Assembly (NCBI GenBank): GCA_045586685.1
Contig: JAZNAU010000042.1
Span: forward strand, 7,822-71,821
DNA length: 64,000 bases
Source of the DNA: Clostridia bacterium
Lineage (GTDB): Bacteria; Bacillota; Clostridia; HGM11514
Reading direction: 5' to 3'
Within the stretch, counting starts at the first letter, position 1. The number at the start of each line of letters is the position of its first letter. A program made the position numbers and the translations under genes. Shown in pieces: positions 5,889 to 27,740 of this stretch. The notes under the pieces are model-generated. The model ran no database searches. It was not told the origin of the DNA and saw only the letters and a program-made list of their open reading frames with translations.

Positions 5889-8075
5889 ATGAAAAAAAAC
5901 TTGAAACGATTTAATTTCATCATCATCAGTTTGTTCGGACTGTTGGTCATCTTTAATTTATTTCGCCCAAAAGGAGACTATTCTTCTCTGGAAAACAGAT
6001 ATTTGCAGGATTTTCCCAATTTCTCTTTCAAGGCATTAAGCAACGGAACCTTTATGGAACAATTTGAAAGCTTTGCCAATGACCAATTATTAGGAAGAGA
6101 TTTTCTGGTGAAAAGACGGGCAAAAACCGAGATTTTACTGGGCAAAAAAGAAAATAACGGTGTTTACTTTGCAGAGGACGGCTATCTGATCGAACAGCCT
6201 CCTGTTCTGGAACAGGAAATTGTACTGGAAAACCTCAATGCAGTGAAAACACTTCACTCTTTGGGGCGGTTCAGAATCACTCTTTCCGTTGTTCCCCCTG
6301 CTTATGAAATTTTAAGGGAGAAACTTCCCGACCATGTTTACAGTCCCGTGATTCTTAATCTGAATCAGGCGATTCGAAAGGAACTGAAAGACACCGGTGT
6401 TCAGATTGCAGACCCTTCCTCTGTTTTATGGAACCACCGAAATGAATACATTTATTATAAAACTGACCATCATCAAACCAGTCTCGGAAGCCGTCTATCT
6501 TACGAGTCTTTAGCACAATTTTTAGGCTATGAACCCTTGGAAGATGTGGCATTTCATCCCGTGGATGTTTCTCATTCCTTTTTAGGCACCACCTACTCCA
6601 AGGGACTTGTTTCCGTAAAACCGGATACCATTACAGCTTACGAAACAAAGCCATCGGCAACCGTATCTTTTCCTGAGAAACAGGAACAATTTGATTCTGT
6701 CTATTTCAAGAATCATCTTGAAGAAAAGGATCAGTACGCCTTCTTTTTGGACGGGAACCACGGACTTGCAGTTGTAAAAGGGCCTAACCAAAACGGACGG
6801 CATCTGGCAATCTTTAAAGATTCCTATGCCCATAGTCTTGCTCCCTTCCTCGCCAATCATTTTGAAACCATTCATTTTATTGATTTGCGGTATTTTCAGG
6901 GAGACATTTTGGAATATCTTCACAACAACCAACTACAGGATGTGCTCTTTTACTACAGTGCACCTAGTTTCATGACCAAAGGAACCTTGGACAAGGTAAC
7001 CGCAAGTGTGGAAACCTCCCCTTATGCACACTTCCAACCCTTTGGGCGAGTAGAAGAAAATGAACCTGTAGATGCTGGATATTTTAATGATGCCGTATTT
7101 GTTGGAGATTCTCTGACAGTAGGCTTTCAGATGTACTCTGATCTGGTGGAGGCAGATTTTCTGTCAAGCACCGCCCTTTCTATTACAGGCTTAGGAAGCG
7201 TGGATGCACCAAGCGGTGGCGGTACTATTTTAGATCGGATTCAAAATGATGCCTACAAAAAAATCTATATTATGCTTGGTATCAATGAGTTGATTGAGCC
7301 ATCAAACAAGGATGCTTTCATAGGTAAATACGAAGCCTTAATTAACACCATCAAGCTAACCCATCCTCAGGCTTATATTTATATTCAATCCATTCTTCCT
7401 GTTTCTCAAAAAGAGGATGCAAAGGGAAGACTGCGAAATGAATATATTTATGATTTTGACGATGCTTTGGAAGAATTAGCTGCTAACAAGGGGGCATATT
7501 ATCTTGATATTGCATCCGCATTGGCAGATGAAAACGGATTTTTGCCGGAACACAGCTCTGTTGACGGGATTCACCTGAATGAGGAATATTATTTAAAATG
7601 GCTTGACTACTTGAAAACACATACTGTATATGACCCTCTTGCCGCCAAAGAGGTTGCGGCAATGGACTCTTTCGAACCGATTGTCAGTGATTACGACATC
7701 ACAGGCATTGCTTCTAACTTAAAAGACACCATTACTTTCACTGACGAAATGGGTCAGCTTCGTTATGCAATGCTCTGTAAAACCCATGGAATTGACTCTG
7801 AAATAATAGCAAATGCCACAGGATTTATTGGTGGCGGAGCTACTGCAGAGGAAATTGCGGTATTTGAAGTAAAAAAGAAAAAGAACGCAAATACCGTCAA
7901 ACAATTATTAGAAGAATATGTTCAGACCAGAAAGGCTAGCTTTGAAACCTACCTTCCCGCTGAAGTTCCAAAATTAGAGCATCCTTTCCTGTTCTCAAAA
8001 GGAAAACTAATTGTTTTGGTCATTGCTGACGACCATGCACAGGCAGAGAAAATCGTTCGAAATGCCCTGAAATAA
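5889..8075 (+). CDS. DHHW/AlgJ-like O-acetyltransferase partner fused to an SGNH/GDSL hydrolase domain and a C-terminal DUF4358-like domain
   Basis: 728 aa. It has an N-terminal TM anchor followed by an AlgJ/DHHW-like region (YYKTDHHQTSLG). The middle region is GDSL-type (FVGDSLT ... GINEL ... DGIHL). The C-terminal ~170 aa are DUF4358-like. It starts 16 nt after the MBOAT gene, behind an AGGAGG RBS. Confidence 0.75.
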   Translation: MKKNLKRFNFIIISLFGLLVIFNLFRPKGDYSSLENRYLQDFPNFSFKALSNGTFMEQFESFANDQLLGRDFLVKRRAKTEILLGKKENNGVYFAEDGYLIEQPPVLEQEIVLENLNAVKTLHSLGRFRITLSVVPPAYEILREKLPDHVYSPVILNLNQAIRKELKDTGVQIADPSSVLWNHRNEYIYYKTDHHQTSLGSRLSYESLAQFLGYEPLEDVAFHPVDVSHSFLGTTYSKGLVSVKPDTITAYETKPSATVSFPEKQEQFDSVYFKNHLEEKDQYAFFLDGNHGLAVVKGPNQNGRHLAIFKDSYAHSLAPFLANHFETIHFIDLRYFQGDILEYLHNNQLQDVLFYYSAPSFMTKGTLDKVTASVETSPYAHFQPFGRVEENEPVDAGYFNDAVFVGDSLTVGFQMYSDLVEADFLSSTALSITGLGSVDAPSGGGTILDRIQNDAYKKIYIMLGINELIEPSNKDAFIGKYEALINTIKLTHPQAYIYIQSILPVSQKEDAKGRLRNEYIYDFDDALEELAANKGAYYLDIASALADENGFLPEHSSVDGIHLNEEYYLKWLDYLKTHTVYDPLAAKEVAAMDSFEPIVSDYDITGIASNLKDTITFTDEMGQLRYAMLCKTHGIDSEIIANATGFIGGGATAEEIAVFEVKKKKNANTVKQLLEEYVQTRKASFETYLPAEVPKLEHPFLFSKGKLIVLVIADDHAQAEKIVRNALK

Positions 8076-25069: not shown

Positions 25070-25799
25070 TTGCTCCGTCTCCCTTCCAATTCTTTTTTAT
25101 CACAGTCATTAAAAACTTTGGCAAATTCATCATCCGCCCTATTCTTGACGGTTGCTTTATTAACCGATAAAACCATTCCAAATTTGTTTTACAGAAAAAT
25201 TCAGGAGCCCGCTTCACCGTTCCCGCCAGCACATCCACAGTTCCGCCTGCACCAATGCAAACCTTCACCTTGAGCTCGTCCCGATATTTTGCAATCCAGT
25301 TTTCCTGACGGGGAAATCCTGTACAAACCATTAAAAAGTCTGCATTTGAATTGTTTATCTGCTCTATAACAGCCTCGTCATTTTTAAAATATCCGTCACA
25401 AAAACCCGCAACACGGATTCCGGAATATTTCTCTTTCATGTTATTGGCAGCCATTTCTGCAACACCCGGTTTTCCACCCAGCAAAAAGACGCTTTTGTTG
25501 CGAGAGGGTAATCCTTCCAGCACATGGCAACACAGCTCAAATCCCGGAACACGCTCTTTAACCGGTGTGCCAATAATCTTCGCTCCATATACCACACCGA
25601 TGCCATCCGGCAATGTCAAATCTGCCGAATTCAGCACATCTCTATACTCCGGCACATGATACGCATGATAAACAATTTCCGGATTGGGAGTGACAACCAT
25701 ACGGGTTTCTTCCTCCTCCAACCATTGGAAAACCGTTTCAACCGCTTCGTCCATTGTGACATTATCAATTTTTACACCCAAAATATGTATTTGTTCCAT
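25062..25799 (-). CDS. tagA: WecB/TagA/CpsF family glycosyltransferase (N-acetylmannosaminyltransferase-like)
   Basis: 245 aa. Family blocks VVTPNPEIV and FLLGGKPGVAE. Confidence 0.85.
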   Translation of the reverse strand: MEQIHILGVKIDNVTMDEAVETVFQWLEEEETRMVVTPNPEIVYHAYHVPEYRDVLNSADLTLPDGIGVVYGAKIIGTPVKERVPGFELCCHVLEGLPSRNKSVFLLGGKPGVAEMAANNMKEKYSGIRVAGFCDGYFKNDEAVIEQINNSNADFLMVCTGFPRQENWIAKYRDELKVKVCIGAGGTVDVLAGTVKRAPEFFCKTNLEWFYRLIKQPSRIGRMMNLPKFLMTVIKKNWKGDGANA

Positions 25800-26139
25800 C
25801 AGCCGGTCGGCCCCTTTCCTTTCTTACCCTTACAGGGTAAATATAAAGATATAATGTTATTATAAAATCAGTAAATGATTTAAATACCGAGTATTTTACA
25901 CAATCCACACCAAGTCCTGCCATGTCAGGCCTTTCCTTCTCTTCACTTTTGCCCGTTACCTGACAAACATATTGTAAAACTTCCGAAACATCAATGTGGA
26001 GAATATCAGATATTCTTTTTGTAAAAGCCTTATTTAAATCTTTAGACTGATAAAGCAGATATTGCAAAGAATATGTTGCAATATCTTCTTGAGACCCTCT
26101 TATGTGTGGATATAAATGTGCTAATAATGAATAAGACAT
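25765..26139 (-). CDS. hypothetical small ORF; only the first ~85 aa look protein-like, possibly a truncated remnant
   Basis: Good RBS (GAAAGGG, 8 nt before the ATG). The start reads MSYSLLAHLYPHIRGSQEDIATYSLQYLL.... The 3' third runs into the tagA promoter region and reads like non-coding sequence. It is co-oriented with the upstream four-helix-bundle gene, 26 nt after its stop. Confidence 0.35.
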   Translation of the reverse strand: MSYSLLAHLYPHIRGSQEDIATYSLQYLLYQSKDLNKAFTKRISDILHIDVSEVLQYVCQVTGKSEEKERPDMAGLGVDCVKYSVFKSFTDFIITLYLYIYPVRVRKERGRPADGTNTYFGCKN

Positions 26140-26164
26140 ATTTATTTTCCCTTTCGTTTCAAGG

Positions 26165-26518
26165 TTATTGATTTCCTTTCGCAGTAGTTACGGATGCTAT
26201 AAGCAATTTCCTAATTTTGCTACATTTATCGTATATCTCTATATATTCTTCTTCAGTTATCATTTTCGTTTCCTTAAAAAGTCCCAACCAATAATCGCTT
26301 TCATAGCATTCTTTCAAAGCGATTTGAAACTTATTTATAAAATCAGCTTTGCTTGCTGCATAATTTGCTTCGTGAATATTAGCACCAATGCTTGTTCCAC
26401 TTCTTAAAAGCTGATTTAACAACACATTTCCTTTTCTATTTTCTTTGATTTCAGTACAAAGGTTTACAATATCAACCGCAAATTGTTTTGATAAATCTAC
26501 CAGTCTGTTTTCTTTCAT
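26165..26518 (-). CDS. four-helix-bundle protein (23S rRNA intervening-sequence protein / Avd-like family)
   Basis: 117 aa, all-helical. It has the family-typical GANIHEANYAASKADFINKFQIALKECYESDYWL block. Confidence 0.8.
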   Translation of the reverse strand: MKENRLVDLSKQFAVDIVNLCTEIKENRKGNVLLNQLLRSGTSIGANIHEANYAASKADFINKFQIALKECYESDYWLGLFKETKMITEEEYIEIYDKCSKIRKLLIASVTTAKGNQ

Positions 26519-26533
26519 ACCTTTTCTCCATTT

Positions 26534-26695
26534 AATGAATTGACAACTTCGTTGTCATGAATTGGCTAAAGCCATGAATTGTTGCTATCGCAACATGAAT
26601 TAAATTGCCTTTTAATGCACTTTAGTGCAATTCATGAGCCGTAAAGCTCAATTCATGAAATCTTTGATTTCAATTCATGCTGAAGGCAATTCATT
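26534..26695. repeat. mirror-symmetric array of eight 8-mers (CATGAATT x4 then AATTCATG x4) separated by unrelated short hairpin palindromes
   Basis: Copies at 26534-41 (aatgaatt), 26556-63, 26573-80, 26594-601, then 26629-36, 26650-57, 26672-79 and 26688-95 (aattcatt). Six of the seven intervening segments are perfect inverted repeats of unrelated sequence: gacaac/gttgtc, ggc/gcc, gttgc/gcaac, tgcact/agtgca, gagc/gctc, gaaatc/gatttc. The array sits in the transcribed leader of the four-helix-bundle gene. Confidence 0.7.
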
Positions 26696-26718
26696 GAGTT
26701 CAAGTTTCACTTGAACTC

Positions 26719-26747
26719 ATTATATCACAAACAAAGAAATATTTCAA
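26719..26747 (-). promoter_or_regulatory. consensus sigma-A promoter reading through the hairpin array into the four-helix-bundle gene
   Basis: Minus-strand TTGAAA (+26742-47), a 17-nt spacer, then TATAAT (+26719-24). Confidence 0.65.
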
Positions 26748-26760
26748 CTATTTTGTTTTT

Positions 26761-26793
26761 TTGCTGGACTTTCTGCGAAATTTGTAGTAAAAT
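26761..26793 (+). promoter_or_regulatory. candidate promoter for manA
   Basis: TTGCTG, 18 nt, then TAGTAAAAT. This is a weaker match. Confidence 0.3.
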
Positions 26794-26822
26794 AGAATTA
26801 GAACAAAAACAGGAGGCAAACC

Positions 26823-27740
26823 ATGTATCCTTTAAAAATGAAGCCTGAAATAAAGCACCTCATTTGGGGCGGAAAAAGACTTCGTGAATTTTATAATAAA
26901 AACTGTACCCGTGATGATGTGGGTGAAAGTTGGGAGGTTTCTGCCCATCCGGAAGGATTAAGCTACATTGCAAATGGTGCTCTAAAAGGGGTTTCTTTGG
27001 CAGATGCGATTCAACAATATCCGGAAGAAATTGCACCGGTGGAATTTCCTCTTTTATTTAAACTGATAGATGCCAGTCAAGATCTGTCCATTCAAGTGCA
27101 TCCTGACGATGCTTACGTTCAGAAAACCAACAATAACCTTCACGGCAAAATAGAAATGTGGTATATTATTGATGCAAAACCGGGTGCCCGTATCGGGTAC
27201 GGCTGGAATCAGACCATGACTCCTGATTTGGTCAGACAAGCCATTGAAAACGGCACTTTGGAGCAGTATATTAACTATATTCCCGTAACAGCAGGACAAG
27301 CTTATTTTATTCCTGCCGGAATTGTGCATTGTCTTTGCAAAGGTCTTTTGGTAGCAGAAATTCAACAAAATTCCACCATGACCTATCGTCTCTACGACTA
27401 TAACCGCAAAGACAAAAACGGAAATAATCGTCAACTTCACATCCACGAAAGTCTGGATGTGCTTGATTATTCCGATAACAGAAATGCAACGGTTGTAACA
27501 GGAGATAATGTCATTTTGGCAAGTTGCCCCTATTTTACGGCTGAAAAAATTATAAGCGACTATTACAAAGGAGATACCAAGGATACATTTGAAATTCTGT
27601 TTTTTGTTAACGGACACGGAGAAATTATTACAGATCAAGGAACGGAATCTTTCCAAGCGGGAGATACTTATCTGCTCCCCTCCTCTCTTGGTGCATATAC
27701 CATAAAGGGACAATGCACCATAATGCGATGTGTAGAATAA
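26823..27740 (+). CDS. manA: mannose-6-phosphate isomerase, class I
   Basis: 305 aa cupin with the type-I PMI metal site block QVHPDD and EIQQNSTMTYRLYDYNR. Confidence 0.9.
   Translation: MYPLKMKPEIKHLIWGGKRLREFYNKNCTRDDVGESWEVSAHPEGLSYIANGALKGVSLADAIQQYPEEIAPVEFPLLFKLIDASQDLSIQVHPDDAYVQKTNNNLHGKIEMWYIIDAKPGARIGYGWNQTMTPDLVRQAIENGTLEQYINYIPVTAGQAYFIPAGIVHCLCKGLLVAEIQQNSTMTYRLYDYNRKDKNGNNRQLHIHESLDVLDYSDNRNATVVTGDNVILASCPYFTAEKIISDYYKGDTKDTFEILFFVNGHGEIITDQGTESFQAGDTYLLPSSLGAYTIKGQCTIMRCVE

Follow-up and report, generated by a model that had tools for sequence, protein, structure and literature searches.

The window analysed here is a stretch of 64,000 nucleotides from a Clostridia bacterium (GenBank assembly GCA_045586685.1, contig JAZNAU010000042.1, positions 7,822 to 71,821, forward strand). 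Between its tagA and manA genes, and immediately upstream of a gene for a four-helix-bundle (4HB) protein, lies an eight-box CATGAATT/AATTCATG array, which on balance probably forms the structured core of a mobile DNA element that is small and non-autonomous and that we term the ladder element. On the + strand, four copies of ATGAATT (starting at 26535, 26557, 26574, and 26595) are followed by four copies of AATTCAT (starting at 26629, 26650, 26672, and 26688), all inside 160 nt. The remainder of the 64-kb window holds 21 box copies on both strands, giving a Poisson P of about 1.4e-15 for eight boxes in 160 nt; the whole-window box total is ordinary (29 found versus 28.7 expected). The preliminary description of this DNA, made from its sequence alone, had reported four (C/A)ATGAATT motifs followed in mirror symmetry by four AATTCAT(G/T) motifs, with perfect palindromes in six of the spacers, and both statements are confirmed. 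The perfect short palindromes are gacaac/gttgtc, ggc/gcc, gttgc/gcaac, gcac/gtgc, gagc/gctc, and gaaatc/gatttc, and the seventh spacer, GCCTTCAGC, has pairing limited to GC/GC, making hp1 the weak hairpin of this copy.

Read on the minus strand, the order is a hairpin P0, R1, hp1, R2, hp2, R3, hp3, R4, hp4, a 15-nt tail, R5, hp5, R6, hp6, R7, hp7, R8, 16 nt containing GGAG, and the start of a 117-aa open reading frame (ORF). Half-array 1 (26629..26694, supported by family alignment) comprises the ATGAATT boxes R1-R4 (26694-26688, 26678-26672, 26656-26650, and 26635-26629) with hp1-hp3 in between, and half-array 2 (26535..26601) comprises the AATTCAT boxes R5-R8 (26601-26595, 26580-26574, 26563-26557, and 26541-26535) with hp5-hp7. 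The centre (26602..26628) holds hp4, GCACTAAAGTGC (26628-26617), and the tail ATTAAAAGGCAATTT, which carries AAGGCAATTT (26611-26602), the complement of GAATTGCCTT at 26692-26683 (the end of R1 and the 5' arm of hp1).

The insert behind the tagA promoter

A promoter scan identified TTGAAA-17-TATAAT with a TG extension on the minus strand (26747..26719; 11 of 12 positions match), with the -35 box at 26742..26747 and the -10 box at 26719..26724. The preliminary description had this promoter driving the array as a leader of the 4HB gene. The promoter is of consensus type and does read through the array into that gene, but it lies outside the element and is the tagA-thyX-tmk promoter of the host. 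Three related genomes (loci L313-L315, on three contigs), reached via ManA homologues with 83, 75, and 71% identity, keep the gene order LPG-synthase, tmk, thyX, tagA, and then the divergent manA; their tagA-manA spacer is 166 nt and has the promoter, with the array and the 4HB gene absent. Alignment places TTGAAA-17-TATAAT in all three of these empty sites, where TATAAT occurs once. The homology of the window breaks right after this TATAAT, the left copy of a 6-bp flanking repeat, and restarts in the tagA 5' untranslated region (UTR) past a second TATAAT at 25864-25859. In this alignment the array, gene, gene fragment, and end hairpins read as one 854-bp insertion (25865..26718, minus strand) directly behind the host -10 box. 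A single gain is the most parsimonious history, because the window and L313 are, by protein identity, mutually closest relatives. No terminator was predicted within 25700-27000, a range that covers the insert, and the promoter has been captured: it reads the element first and then the essential tagA-thyX-tmk operon. By its coordinates, the predicted transcription start would fall inside P0.

Both ends of the element are hairpins flush with the flanks. The left-end hairpin P0, GAGTTCAAG-tgaaa-CTTGAACTC (26696..26718), abuts the first TATAAT and has box variants, ATGAGTT/AACTCAT, as its arms; the right-end hairpin, AAATCA-tttac-TGATTT (25865..25881), abuts the second TATAAT (25859..25864). By reading, the two ends carry their box variants in direct rather than inverted orientation, and their best mutual match is 8 of 13 positions, so that there is no convincing terminal inverted repeat of the kind that goes with a fixed-length target duplication in a DDE-type miniature inverted-repeat transposable element, although the 6-bp direct repeat TATAAT is present; this combination of flush end hairpins and absent terminal inverted repeats is that of palindrome-associated transposable elements (PATEs).

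At least five further copies share these ends: TATAAT directly followed by GAGTTTGC in P0, then the array, the cargo, and a right end CATCTAAATCGTTCAC..ATTY joined to TATAAT (conserved form CATCTAAATCGTTCACnnATTY, of which the window hairpin is a variant). The cargo is absent in L062, a 70-aa ORF in L093, and a 4HB gene with a second ORF (bPH-like by eye only) in L103, and two of the copies are in L014. The P0 arms co-vary between copies, being GAGTTTGC/GCAAACTC in most and TGATTTCATC/GATGAAATCA in L089. Reading showed, for six of six copies (L002, L014, L054, L062, L093, and the window), a TTG that precedes the left TATAAT at 17-nt spacing; the promoter scorer itself chose 17 nt in three of the six, and the sequence around the TTG is otherwise unrelated among them. 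These left flanks are real promoters, with the window subfamily sitting specifically behind -10 boxes and the promoter reading into the element. The second L014 element, about 850-1040 nt downstream of the first in the sense direction, has P0 and the right end intact and the whole ladder deleted exactly between TCAAT repeats at R1 and R8, a deletion that looks like hairpin-mediated slippage.

The 4HB gene (26165..26518, minus strand) encodes a protein of 117 aa that belongs to the PF05635/TIGR02436 family, the Avd/S23p family of 23S rRNA intervening sequences (IVSs). It scores 90.3 bits with the Pfam model (cut-off 33.8; E 1.1e-25) and 99.9 bits with TIGR02436 (cut-off 24; E 9e-29), and the closest solved structure is PDB 2RLD (E 4e-28; five chains in the entry). 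Residues R39, S43, N47, and E50 form the R-x3-S-x3-N-x2-E motif given for the family (PMC3936711). The start codon lies 16 nt past R8, and the spacer between them, TAAATGGAGAAAAGGT (26519..26534), contains a ribosome-binding site; the same R8-spacer-4HB layout is repeated in L093, L103, L110, and L121-L132. Among thousands of PF05635 matches, at least 120 separate 90%-identity clusters have 86-94% identity to the window protein. An identical 4HB protein with a near-identical array is found in at least six gene neighbourhoods on different contigs, behind purH, tuf, a Cu-amine-oxidase-like gene, MatE, an ABC permease, and DUF2500.

A 4HB gene nonetheless accompanies few arrays. Among the DNA-pattern matches listed it occurs in just 10 loci, in nine of which it directly adjoins the array or lies inside it; it follows R8 in the window, L035, L078, L103, L110, and L117, and in L105 and L032 it is inside the array centre, where additional long-range helices enclose it, and it runs antisense to the array as usually oriented. 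The array is not a dedicated leader of the 4HB gene, as had first been supposed, because about 85% of family members have no adjoining 4HB gene and the orientation of arrays to their neighbours is not fixed; the 4HB gene is optional cargo. In L078 and L110 a second copy of R1 and the first hairpin arm follows the 4HB stop codon (TTTACAATGAATTGCAACCTTA in L078; ATGAATTGCCTTGCGGCATT in L110), and array and gene are thus bracketed by a direct repeat of about 20 nt, as if recombination at R1/hp1 had integrated the unit.

The next feature past the 4HB gene is the N-terminal fragment of a PD-(D/E)XK-like gene (25882..26139, minus strand), which the element end at 25865 cuts off after about 91 codons and which has no match in Pfam, NCBIfam, or PADLOC. 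The 124-aa ORF listed here (25765-26139, minus strand) is not a real gene, its frame crossing the element end into the tagA 5' UTR. We rejected this second ORF as an element-specific gene: it is truncated, and its full-length relatives, which go on ...ERPDMAG...EMKFYA, are found elsewhere without ladders, one of them (L317) in a region directly after the tmRNA gene. Genes downstream of the ladder-4HB unit in L121, L124, and L128 are often defence-like (DUF4379 and an AbiTii-like gene).

The ladder family and its hairpins

An exact-pattern scan of one genome per species, using three CATGAATT boxes 6-30 nt apart, gave at least 120 genome loci, mostly in metagenome-assembled genomes (MAGs) of Clostridia; the matches listed include Oscillospiraceae, Acutalibacteraceae, Christensenellales, and rumen/gut 'Clostridia bacterium'. 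More than 100 Clostridia MAG loci repeat both the 4+4 architecture and the box, with boxes spaced 14-26 nt apart and a centre of about 34 nt, and 28 of 28 complete copies hold 4+4 boxes when one mismatch per box is allowed. The preliminary description had taken an 8-mer as the unit; its box is conserved, but the real repeat is the 9-mer C-ATGAATT-G / C-AATTCAT-G, whose outer G and C close every hairpin. A ladder was defined by 4+4 boxes of this form, G..C-closed hairpins, and a centre with a copy of the hp1 3' arm and AATTC. The window copy, with eight perfect boxes, six good hairpins, and AAGGCAATTT in its centre, is such an element and aligns throughout with 24 other copies. In minus-strand sense the ladder anatomy is TATAAT and P0, four C-ATGAATT-G boxes with hairpins, the centre, four C-AATTCAT-G boxes with hairpins, optional cargo, and the conserved right-end hairpin followed by TATAAT. 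Complete arrays are all intergenic and show no clear orientation bias relative to their neighbours (as a raw count, 15 of 21 downstream neighbours are co-oriented with the array, several of them 4HB genes), and many copies lie right after terminators or between convergent or tandem genes.

The hairpins are under strong selection and the linker between them is invariant. Across 28 copies the mean stem is 3.0-5.0 bp, against 0.55-0.77 in shuffled spacers, and each hairpin position shows 10-18 distinct stems. MAFFT alignments are ragged in the hairpins, and per-sequence parsing with counting of paired columns was used instead of a covariance model. An alignment of 19 sequences shows pairing in 96.9% of cells and double changes at 17 pairs, a level of covariation reached by none of 500 shuffles, while slid-partner controls pair in 25-40% of cells. 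The stem pairs comprise 617 Watson-Crick (99%), 2 G-U, 2 A-C, and 4 other mismatches; strand asymmetry is absent, and the 2 versus 2 balance of G-U and A-C is uninformative for strand assignment. The proposal that the linker stays constant while the hairpins vary yet pair is thus upheld in relatives, where stems co-vary and boxes are invariant. The hairpins are not mutually unrelated, as had been stated, since across the family each position has subfamily-conserved stems, such as GACAAC/GTTGTC or GACGGC/GCCGTC at hp7.

Pairing between the half-arrays is harder to assess, the invariant boxes giving no covariation signal. It had been suggested that 7-bp box helices stack with the hairpins at serial four-way junctions. 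The sister-family boxes, the permuted copies (both described below), and the exact ladder deletion in L014 lend indirect support to the idea that the two half-arrays are meant to be mutually complementary; against it, A.A mismatches arising from the box variant AAATCAT stand uncompensated in two rungs, one affected in 8 of 19 sequences and the other in 4 of 19. There is also an alternative helix, in which GAATTGCCTT pairs with AAGGCAATTT of the centre. It is 98.4% paired, with two co-varying pairs and subfamily covariation (GCC/GGC, GCCC/GGGC, and GCAACC/GGTTGC); RNAalifold prefers it, and it is incompatible with hp1 and part of the R1:R8 rung.

Several variants of the layout were observed. 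A sister family with boxes GTGAAGTT/AACTTCAC has the same 4+4 layout and a centre copy of the first hairpin arm (L195, L255, L257, L262, L270, L292, and L296); its neighbours on both sides are housekeeping genes (in L296 it follows dnaN), and no 4HB gene was found near it in eight loci. Circularly permuted copies (L025, L057, and L115) read AATTCAT x4, a TCCTGC..GCAGGA hairpin, and ATGAATT x4, and tandem head-to-tail copies are joined by the P0 hairpin (L044, 2440-2960; L091, 2843-3214). In L084 (1-4100) a cassette-like row of unrelated small genes lies on one strand. Upstream of each gene, in the gene's own sense, come half-arrays of the AACTTCAC-hairpin and AATTCAT-hairpin types, followed by a TGnTATAAT promoter belonging to that gene. 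These box types are mutually non-complementary, and half-arrays therefore occur without a partner half; a complete GTGAAGTT/AACTTCAC ladder is at 6600-6735 of the same locus. At hp5, always directly after the first AATTCAT box, a non-palindromic variant, GGAG[CG..CG]AG or GGAGGAGGCGGTACGCCGACGAG, is found in L035, L063, L091, L093, L117, L119, L121, and others; in it G-A / A-G, perhaps tandem sheared pairs as in a k-turn, flank an inner hairpin.

The preliminary description knew of no element with this architecture, and our searches agree. No Rfam 15 family was identified: a permissive scan of 25500-27500 gave chance-level matches, and at gathering threshold the matches in 18 related loci were 5S rRNA and a tRNA located elsewhere, with nothing on the arrays. 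A RAGATH-15 match at 26665-26768 (+ strand; 20.8 bits, E 0.013, against a gathering score of 199.5) rests on a GAAGGCAA stretch and a hairpin and was judged to be chance. Literature searches on PF05635 proteins, the box 8-mers, four-way-junction intergenic repeats, and repetitive extragenic palindromic (REP) doublets with their tyrosine transposases (REPIN/RAYT) in Firmicutes turned up no description of it. The Met-Asn-stop mini-ORFs to which attention had been drawn lack a ribosome-binding site and arise simply as a consequence of the box sequence.

Folded DNA, transcript, or duplex binding sites

In the mobile-element interpretation that we favour, the invariant boxes would be recognition sites for a protein supplied in trans, whereas the variable hairpins would need only be hairpins, of any sequence, and would act when replication or transposition exposes the DNA as single strands. 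Folding of each half-array would be on the strand that reads AATTCAT, with loops forming c(GNA)g / c(GNNA)g; insertion specific for TATAAT would ensure that promoterless cargo is expressed, and mobilisation would occur in trans.

The loops bear on the choice between DNA and RNA. They were scored on 208 distinct hairpins, each on the strand where the flanking boxes read AATTCAT. Among triloops there are 45 GNA versus 2 of the complementary TNC (p = 1.6e-11), and among tetraloops 38 GNNA versus 0 TNNC (p = 7e-12); C:G closes 76 of the 83 loops, and GNYA (20) is about as common as GNRA (18). Both half-arrays follow this loop rule on their own AATTCAT strand, placing the favoured hairpins on opposite strands. 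Such an opposite-strand layout is that of transposon ends, and also of the two lagging-strand templates of forks leaving a centre. The 'mini-hairpin DNA' motifs GCGNAGC and GCGNNAGC depend on a C:G closing pair, are far stabler as DNA than as RNA, resist nucleases, and are bound poorly by single-stranded-DNA-binding protein (SSB) (PMC13037366, PMC3201870). We favour action of the hairpins in single-stranded DNA rather than RNA, because the loops of the two half-arrays obey the mini-hairpin rule, c(GNA)g / c(GNNA)g, each on a different strand; this reading also fits the almost purely Watson-Crick stems, the slippage-like ladder deletion in L014, the predicted transcription start inside P0, and the variable orientation of the array relative to the 4HB gene. 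The preliminary description had allowed for either RNA or a DNA cruciform, and of these the loop rule favours folded DNA.

The most serious alternative, which we regard as possible though rather doubtful, is a structured RNA: the array would form the 5' end of the captured transcript, with four stacked 7-8-bp helices and the hairpins at perfect four-way junctions, and would stabilise or regulate the mRNA or serve as a binding platform for the 4HB protein, in analogy to the 23S IVS or to the Avd-RNA complex of diversity-generating retroelements (DGRs). The sense RNA of the array is predicted to fold well (-65.5 kcal/mol, z = -6.2 against shuffles), which bears out the folding part of the earlier RNA proposal, and the window subfamily, always behind a -10 box, would be transcribed in one direction. 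The 4HB start codon is close behind R8 with a good ribosome-binding site, and the enclosure of the 4HB gene in L105 and L032 resembles the arrangement in IVSs (PMC4990558). Permuted copies retain pairing potential, the sister family has altered both box halves together, and the co-varying alternative helix suggests a switch or folding guide. A functional transcript would not, however, be expected from stems with just 2 G-U pairs in 625 and no strand asymmetry, nor from G-N-(N)-A loops with C:G closure that fall on opposite strands in the two halves and include GNYA as often as GNRA. The predicted start would remove most of P0; the A.A mismatches in two rungs are uncompensated; most arrays have no 4HB gene, and that gene is antisense to the array in L032 and L105; orientation to neighbours shows no clear bias; and Rfam offers no match.

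Several observations weigh against folded DNA and against mobility, and in part they are the ones just cited for RNA. Loops of the G-N-(N)-A type occur in RNA too; a transcript in either direction has the same layout by symmetry, making the loop polarity compatible with RNA; the mini-hairpin loop motif is present in only two of the six box-flanked hairpins of the window, hp5 with c(GATA)g and hp7 with c(GAA)g; and the sense RNA folds well. A binding-site model leaves unexplained both the co-varying alternative helix and the permuted copies, which have the look of single-strand features. With regard to insertion, L089 is an exception, with TATACT as its left flank and no repeat on the right side; in the L121-type subfamily P0 is preceded by TTGACA rather than TATAAT, the element ends being known for the window subfamily; and the flanking TATAAT fits either a 6-bp target duplication or a target plus an element-borne end. 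Mobility is deduced from presence/absence and multiple contexts rather than directly observed. Finally, the gene tables of the loci examined contain no transposase or recombinase in the window or beside any copy. A tblastn search found no Y1 transposase in the 64-kb window, and the one IS200-like gene that it detected elsewhere, 4.6 kb from an array in L049, is unrelated.

Duplex DNA offers another, in our judgement improbable, account, in which the eight 9-bp boxes are protein-binding sites (operators, iterons, centromere-like sites, or subterminal transposase sites as at the ends of Mu, Tn7, and En/Spm) and the palindromes have no structural role. Boxes that remain invariant across copies whose hairpins have all changed, in four direct and four inverted copies, would be expected of such sites, as would end hairpins made of box variants and the lone half-arrays upstream of promoters in L084. 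But this account leaves the palindromes kept through double substitutions and the biased loops unexplained, and the box spacing of 14-26 bp shows no helical phasing.

Similarly improbable is a domesticated repeat resembling REP sequences and bacterial interspersed mosaic elements (BIMEs), kept by the host as transcript stabilisers, attenuators, or nucleoid-protein sites after an ancient spread, of which the window copy would be one more intergenic repeat beside an unrelated gene. The intergenic position of all copies, in either orientation, many just after terminators or between convergent or tandem genes, agrees with this, as do the L084 half-arrays in the 3' regions of cassette genes; yet REP/BIME sequences conserve the palindrome, whereas ladders conserve the linker and let the palindromes change. 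Nor does such a repeat account for the window copy, which was inserted recently as a discrete unit that has defined ends and carries genes, or for an identical module in at least six contexts. Three further candidates were rejected: an extrachromosomal circle or rolling-circle multimer, prompted by the permuted and tandem copies (the two short module contigs have no terminal overlap and are low-coverage fragments); a phage or plasmid origin (weak gene-level matches only in plasmid and phage collections, and real ladders in about 7 of 60 viral-contig pattern matches); and an autonomous copy with a transposase between distant half-arrays, where L109 has ProS and L044 a candidate housekeeping-type ORF.

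A bolder form of the mobile-element interpretation, which we put forward as a speculation with a small chance of being right, is that ladders form a new mobile DNA class, which homes in on promoter -10 boxes and moves as folded single-stranded DNA, the PF05635 4HB protein (encoded by the only gene recurrently carried) serving it for mobility or maintenance. What such an element of protein-recognised 9-nt boxes and SSB-resistant mini-hairpins seeks may be the TATAAT strand when open complexes or forks expose it.

Relation to known elements and significance

In gene content, the nearest system is the IVS with an S23p/PF05635 ORF of Leptospira, Coxiella, and Xanthomonas. In 23S rRNA IVSs with an S23p ORF, mobility is suspected and the mobility enzyme is not known (PMC4990558). 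Like the ladder element, these are small selfish inserts whose only recurrent gene is the PF05635 4HB gene, with long-range complementary flanks, and in some ladder copies (L105, L032) the ORF is likewise inside the loop of the paired flanks. The differences are that the ladder element lies between tagA and manA, with no rRNA match in 25500-27500; that the IVS is one continuous 28-bp stem cut by RNase III, whereas the ladder has four 7-9-bp boxes interrupted by hairpins; and that the window ORF is 3' of both half-arrays rather than enclosed, most ladder copies having no ORF.

In likely mechanism, the nearest elements are the PATEs of the IS200/IS605 insertion sequences and REP/REPIN sequences, both mobilised by Y1 HUH enzymes. 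They share with ladders the lack of obvious terminal inverted repeats, a hairpin flush at each end, an apparently specific short insertion sequence, hairpins probably read in single-stranded DNA, and short copies far outnumbering gene-carrying ones. In contrast, no Y1 transposase was found near ladder copies, the presumed ladder target is 6 nt and present on both sides, and the ladder body has eight boxes and seven hairpins rather than two end hairpins. In IS608-type elements one strand serves both ends, whereas ladder loop polarity points to opposite strands; and in REP/BIME/REPIN sequences it is the palindrome that is conserved, while in ladders there are 10-18 stems per position and the 9-nt linker is conserved.

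Genomic behaviour is most like that of Neisseria Correia elements and pneumococcal BOX and RUP, promoter-affecting miniature inverted-repeat transposable elements. These are small, intergenic, multi-copy, and non-autonomous, lie within transcription units, and can fold when transcribed, BOX having a modular boxA-(boxB)n-boxC structure; they differ in having conserved bodies, true terminal inverted repeats, and TA duplications. None of them is known to have a constant short linker with variable hairpins or an exact position behind -10 boxes. The logic of short conserved cores and free palindromes in folded single-stranded DNA with side arms is closest to that of integron attC sites and the inverted terminal repeats (ITRs) of the parvovirus adeno-associated virus (AAV). 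attC sites have 7-bp R boxes, and each is one bulged hairpin, 57-141 nt long, on the 3' side of its cassette; the cassettes are promoterless and served by an upstream promoter; AAV ITRs have GAGC repeats and two side arms at the end of a linear genome. Ladders have no integrase or Rep gene, and the 4+4 box pattern is not known from either attC sites or AAV ITRs. CRISPR and ToxI arrays also alternate short repeats with variable segments upstream of a small gene, but ladder repeats are 9 nt rather than 23-37 or 36 nt, the variable parts are 9-16-nt palindromes, the layout is mirror-symmetric and fixed at 4+4, and there is no cas or toxN-like gene.

The ladder appears to be a mobile DNA element of gut Clostridia that is small and has not been described before, with no Rfam family, transposase, or paper found to match it; it is abundant, has been overlooked, and is widespread in gut and rumen Clostridia. 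As a promoter trap, with six mapped copies exactly behind a -10 box and the window copy placed before the essential genes thyX and tmk, it bears directly on host gene expression and on genome annotation. Selection for stable DNA hairpins has a natural example here, in mini-hairpins of the c(GNA)g type that vary freely while the linker stays constant. The role of PF05635/S23p proteins and the origin of the rRNA IVSs have been open since 1993, and the ladder provides a defined candidate nucleic-acid partner for these proteins. Should the bolder form of the mobile-element interpretation prove true, it would assign the large non-DGR branch of the Avd/S23p family its first function, and would explain the 23S rRNA IVSs as ladder-like elements that landed in rRNA genes.

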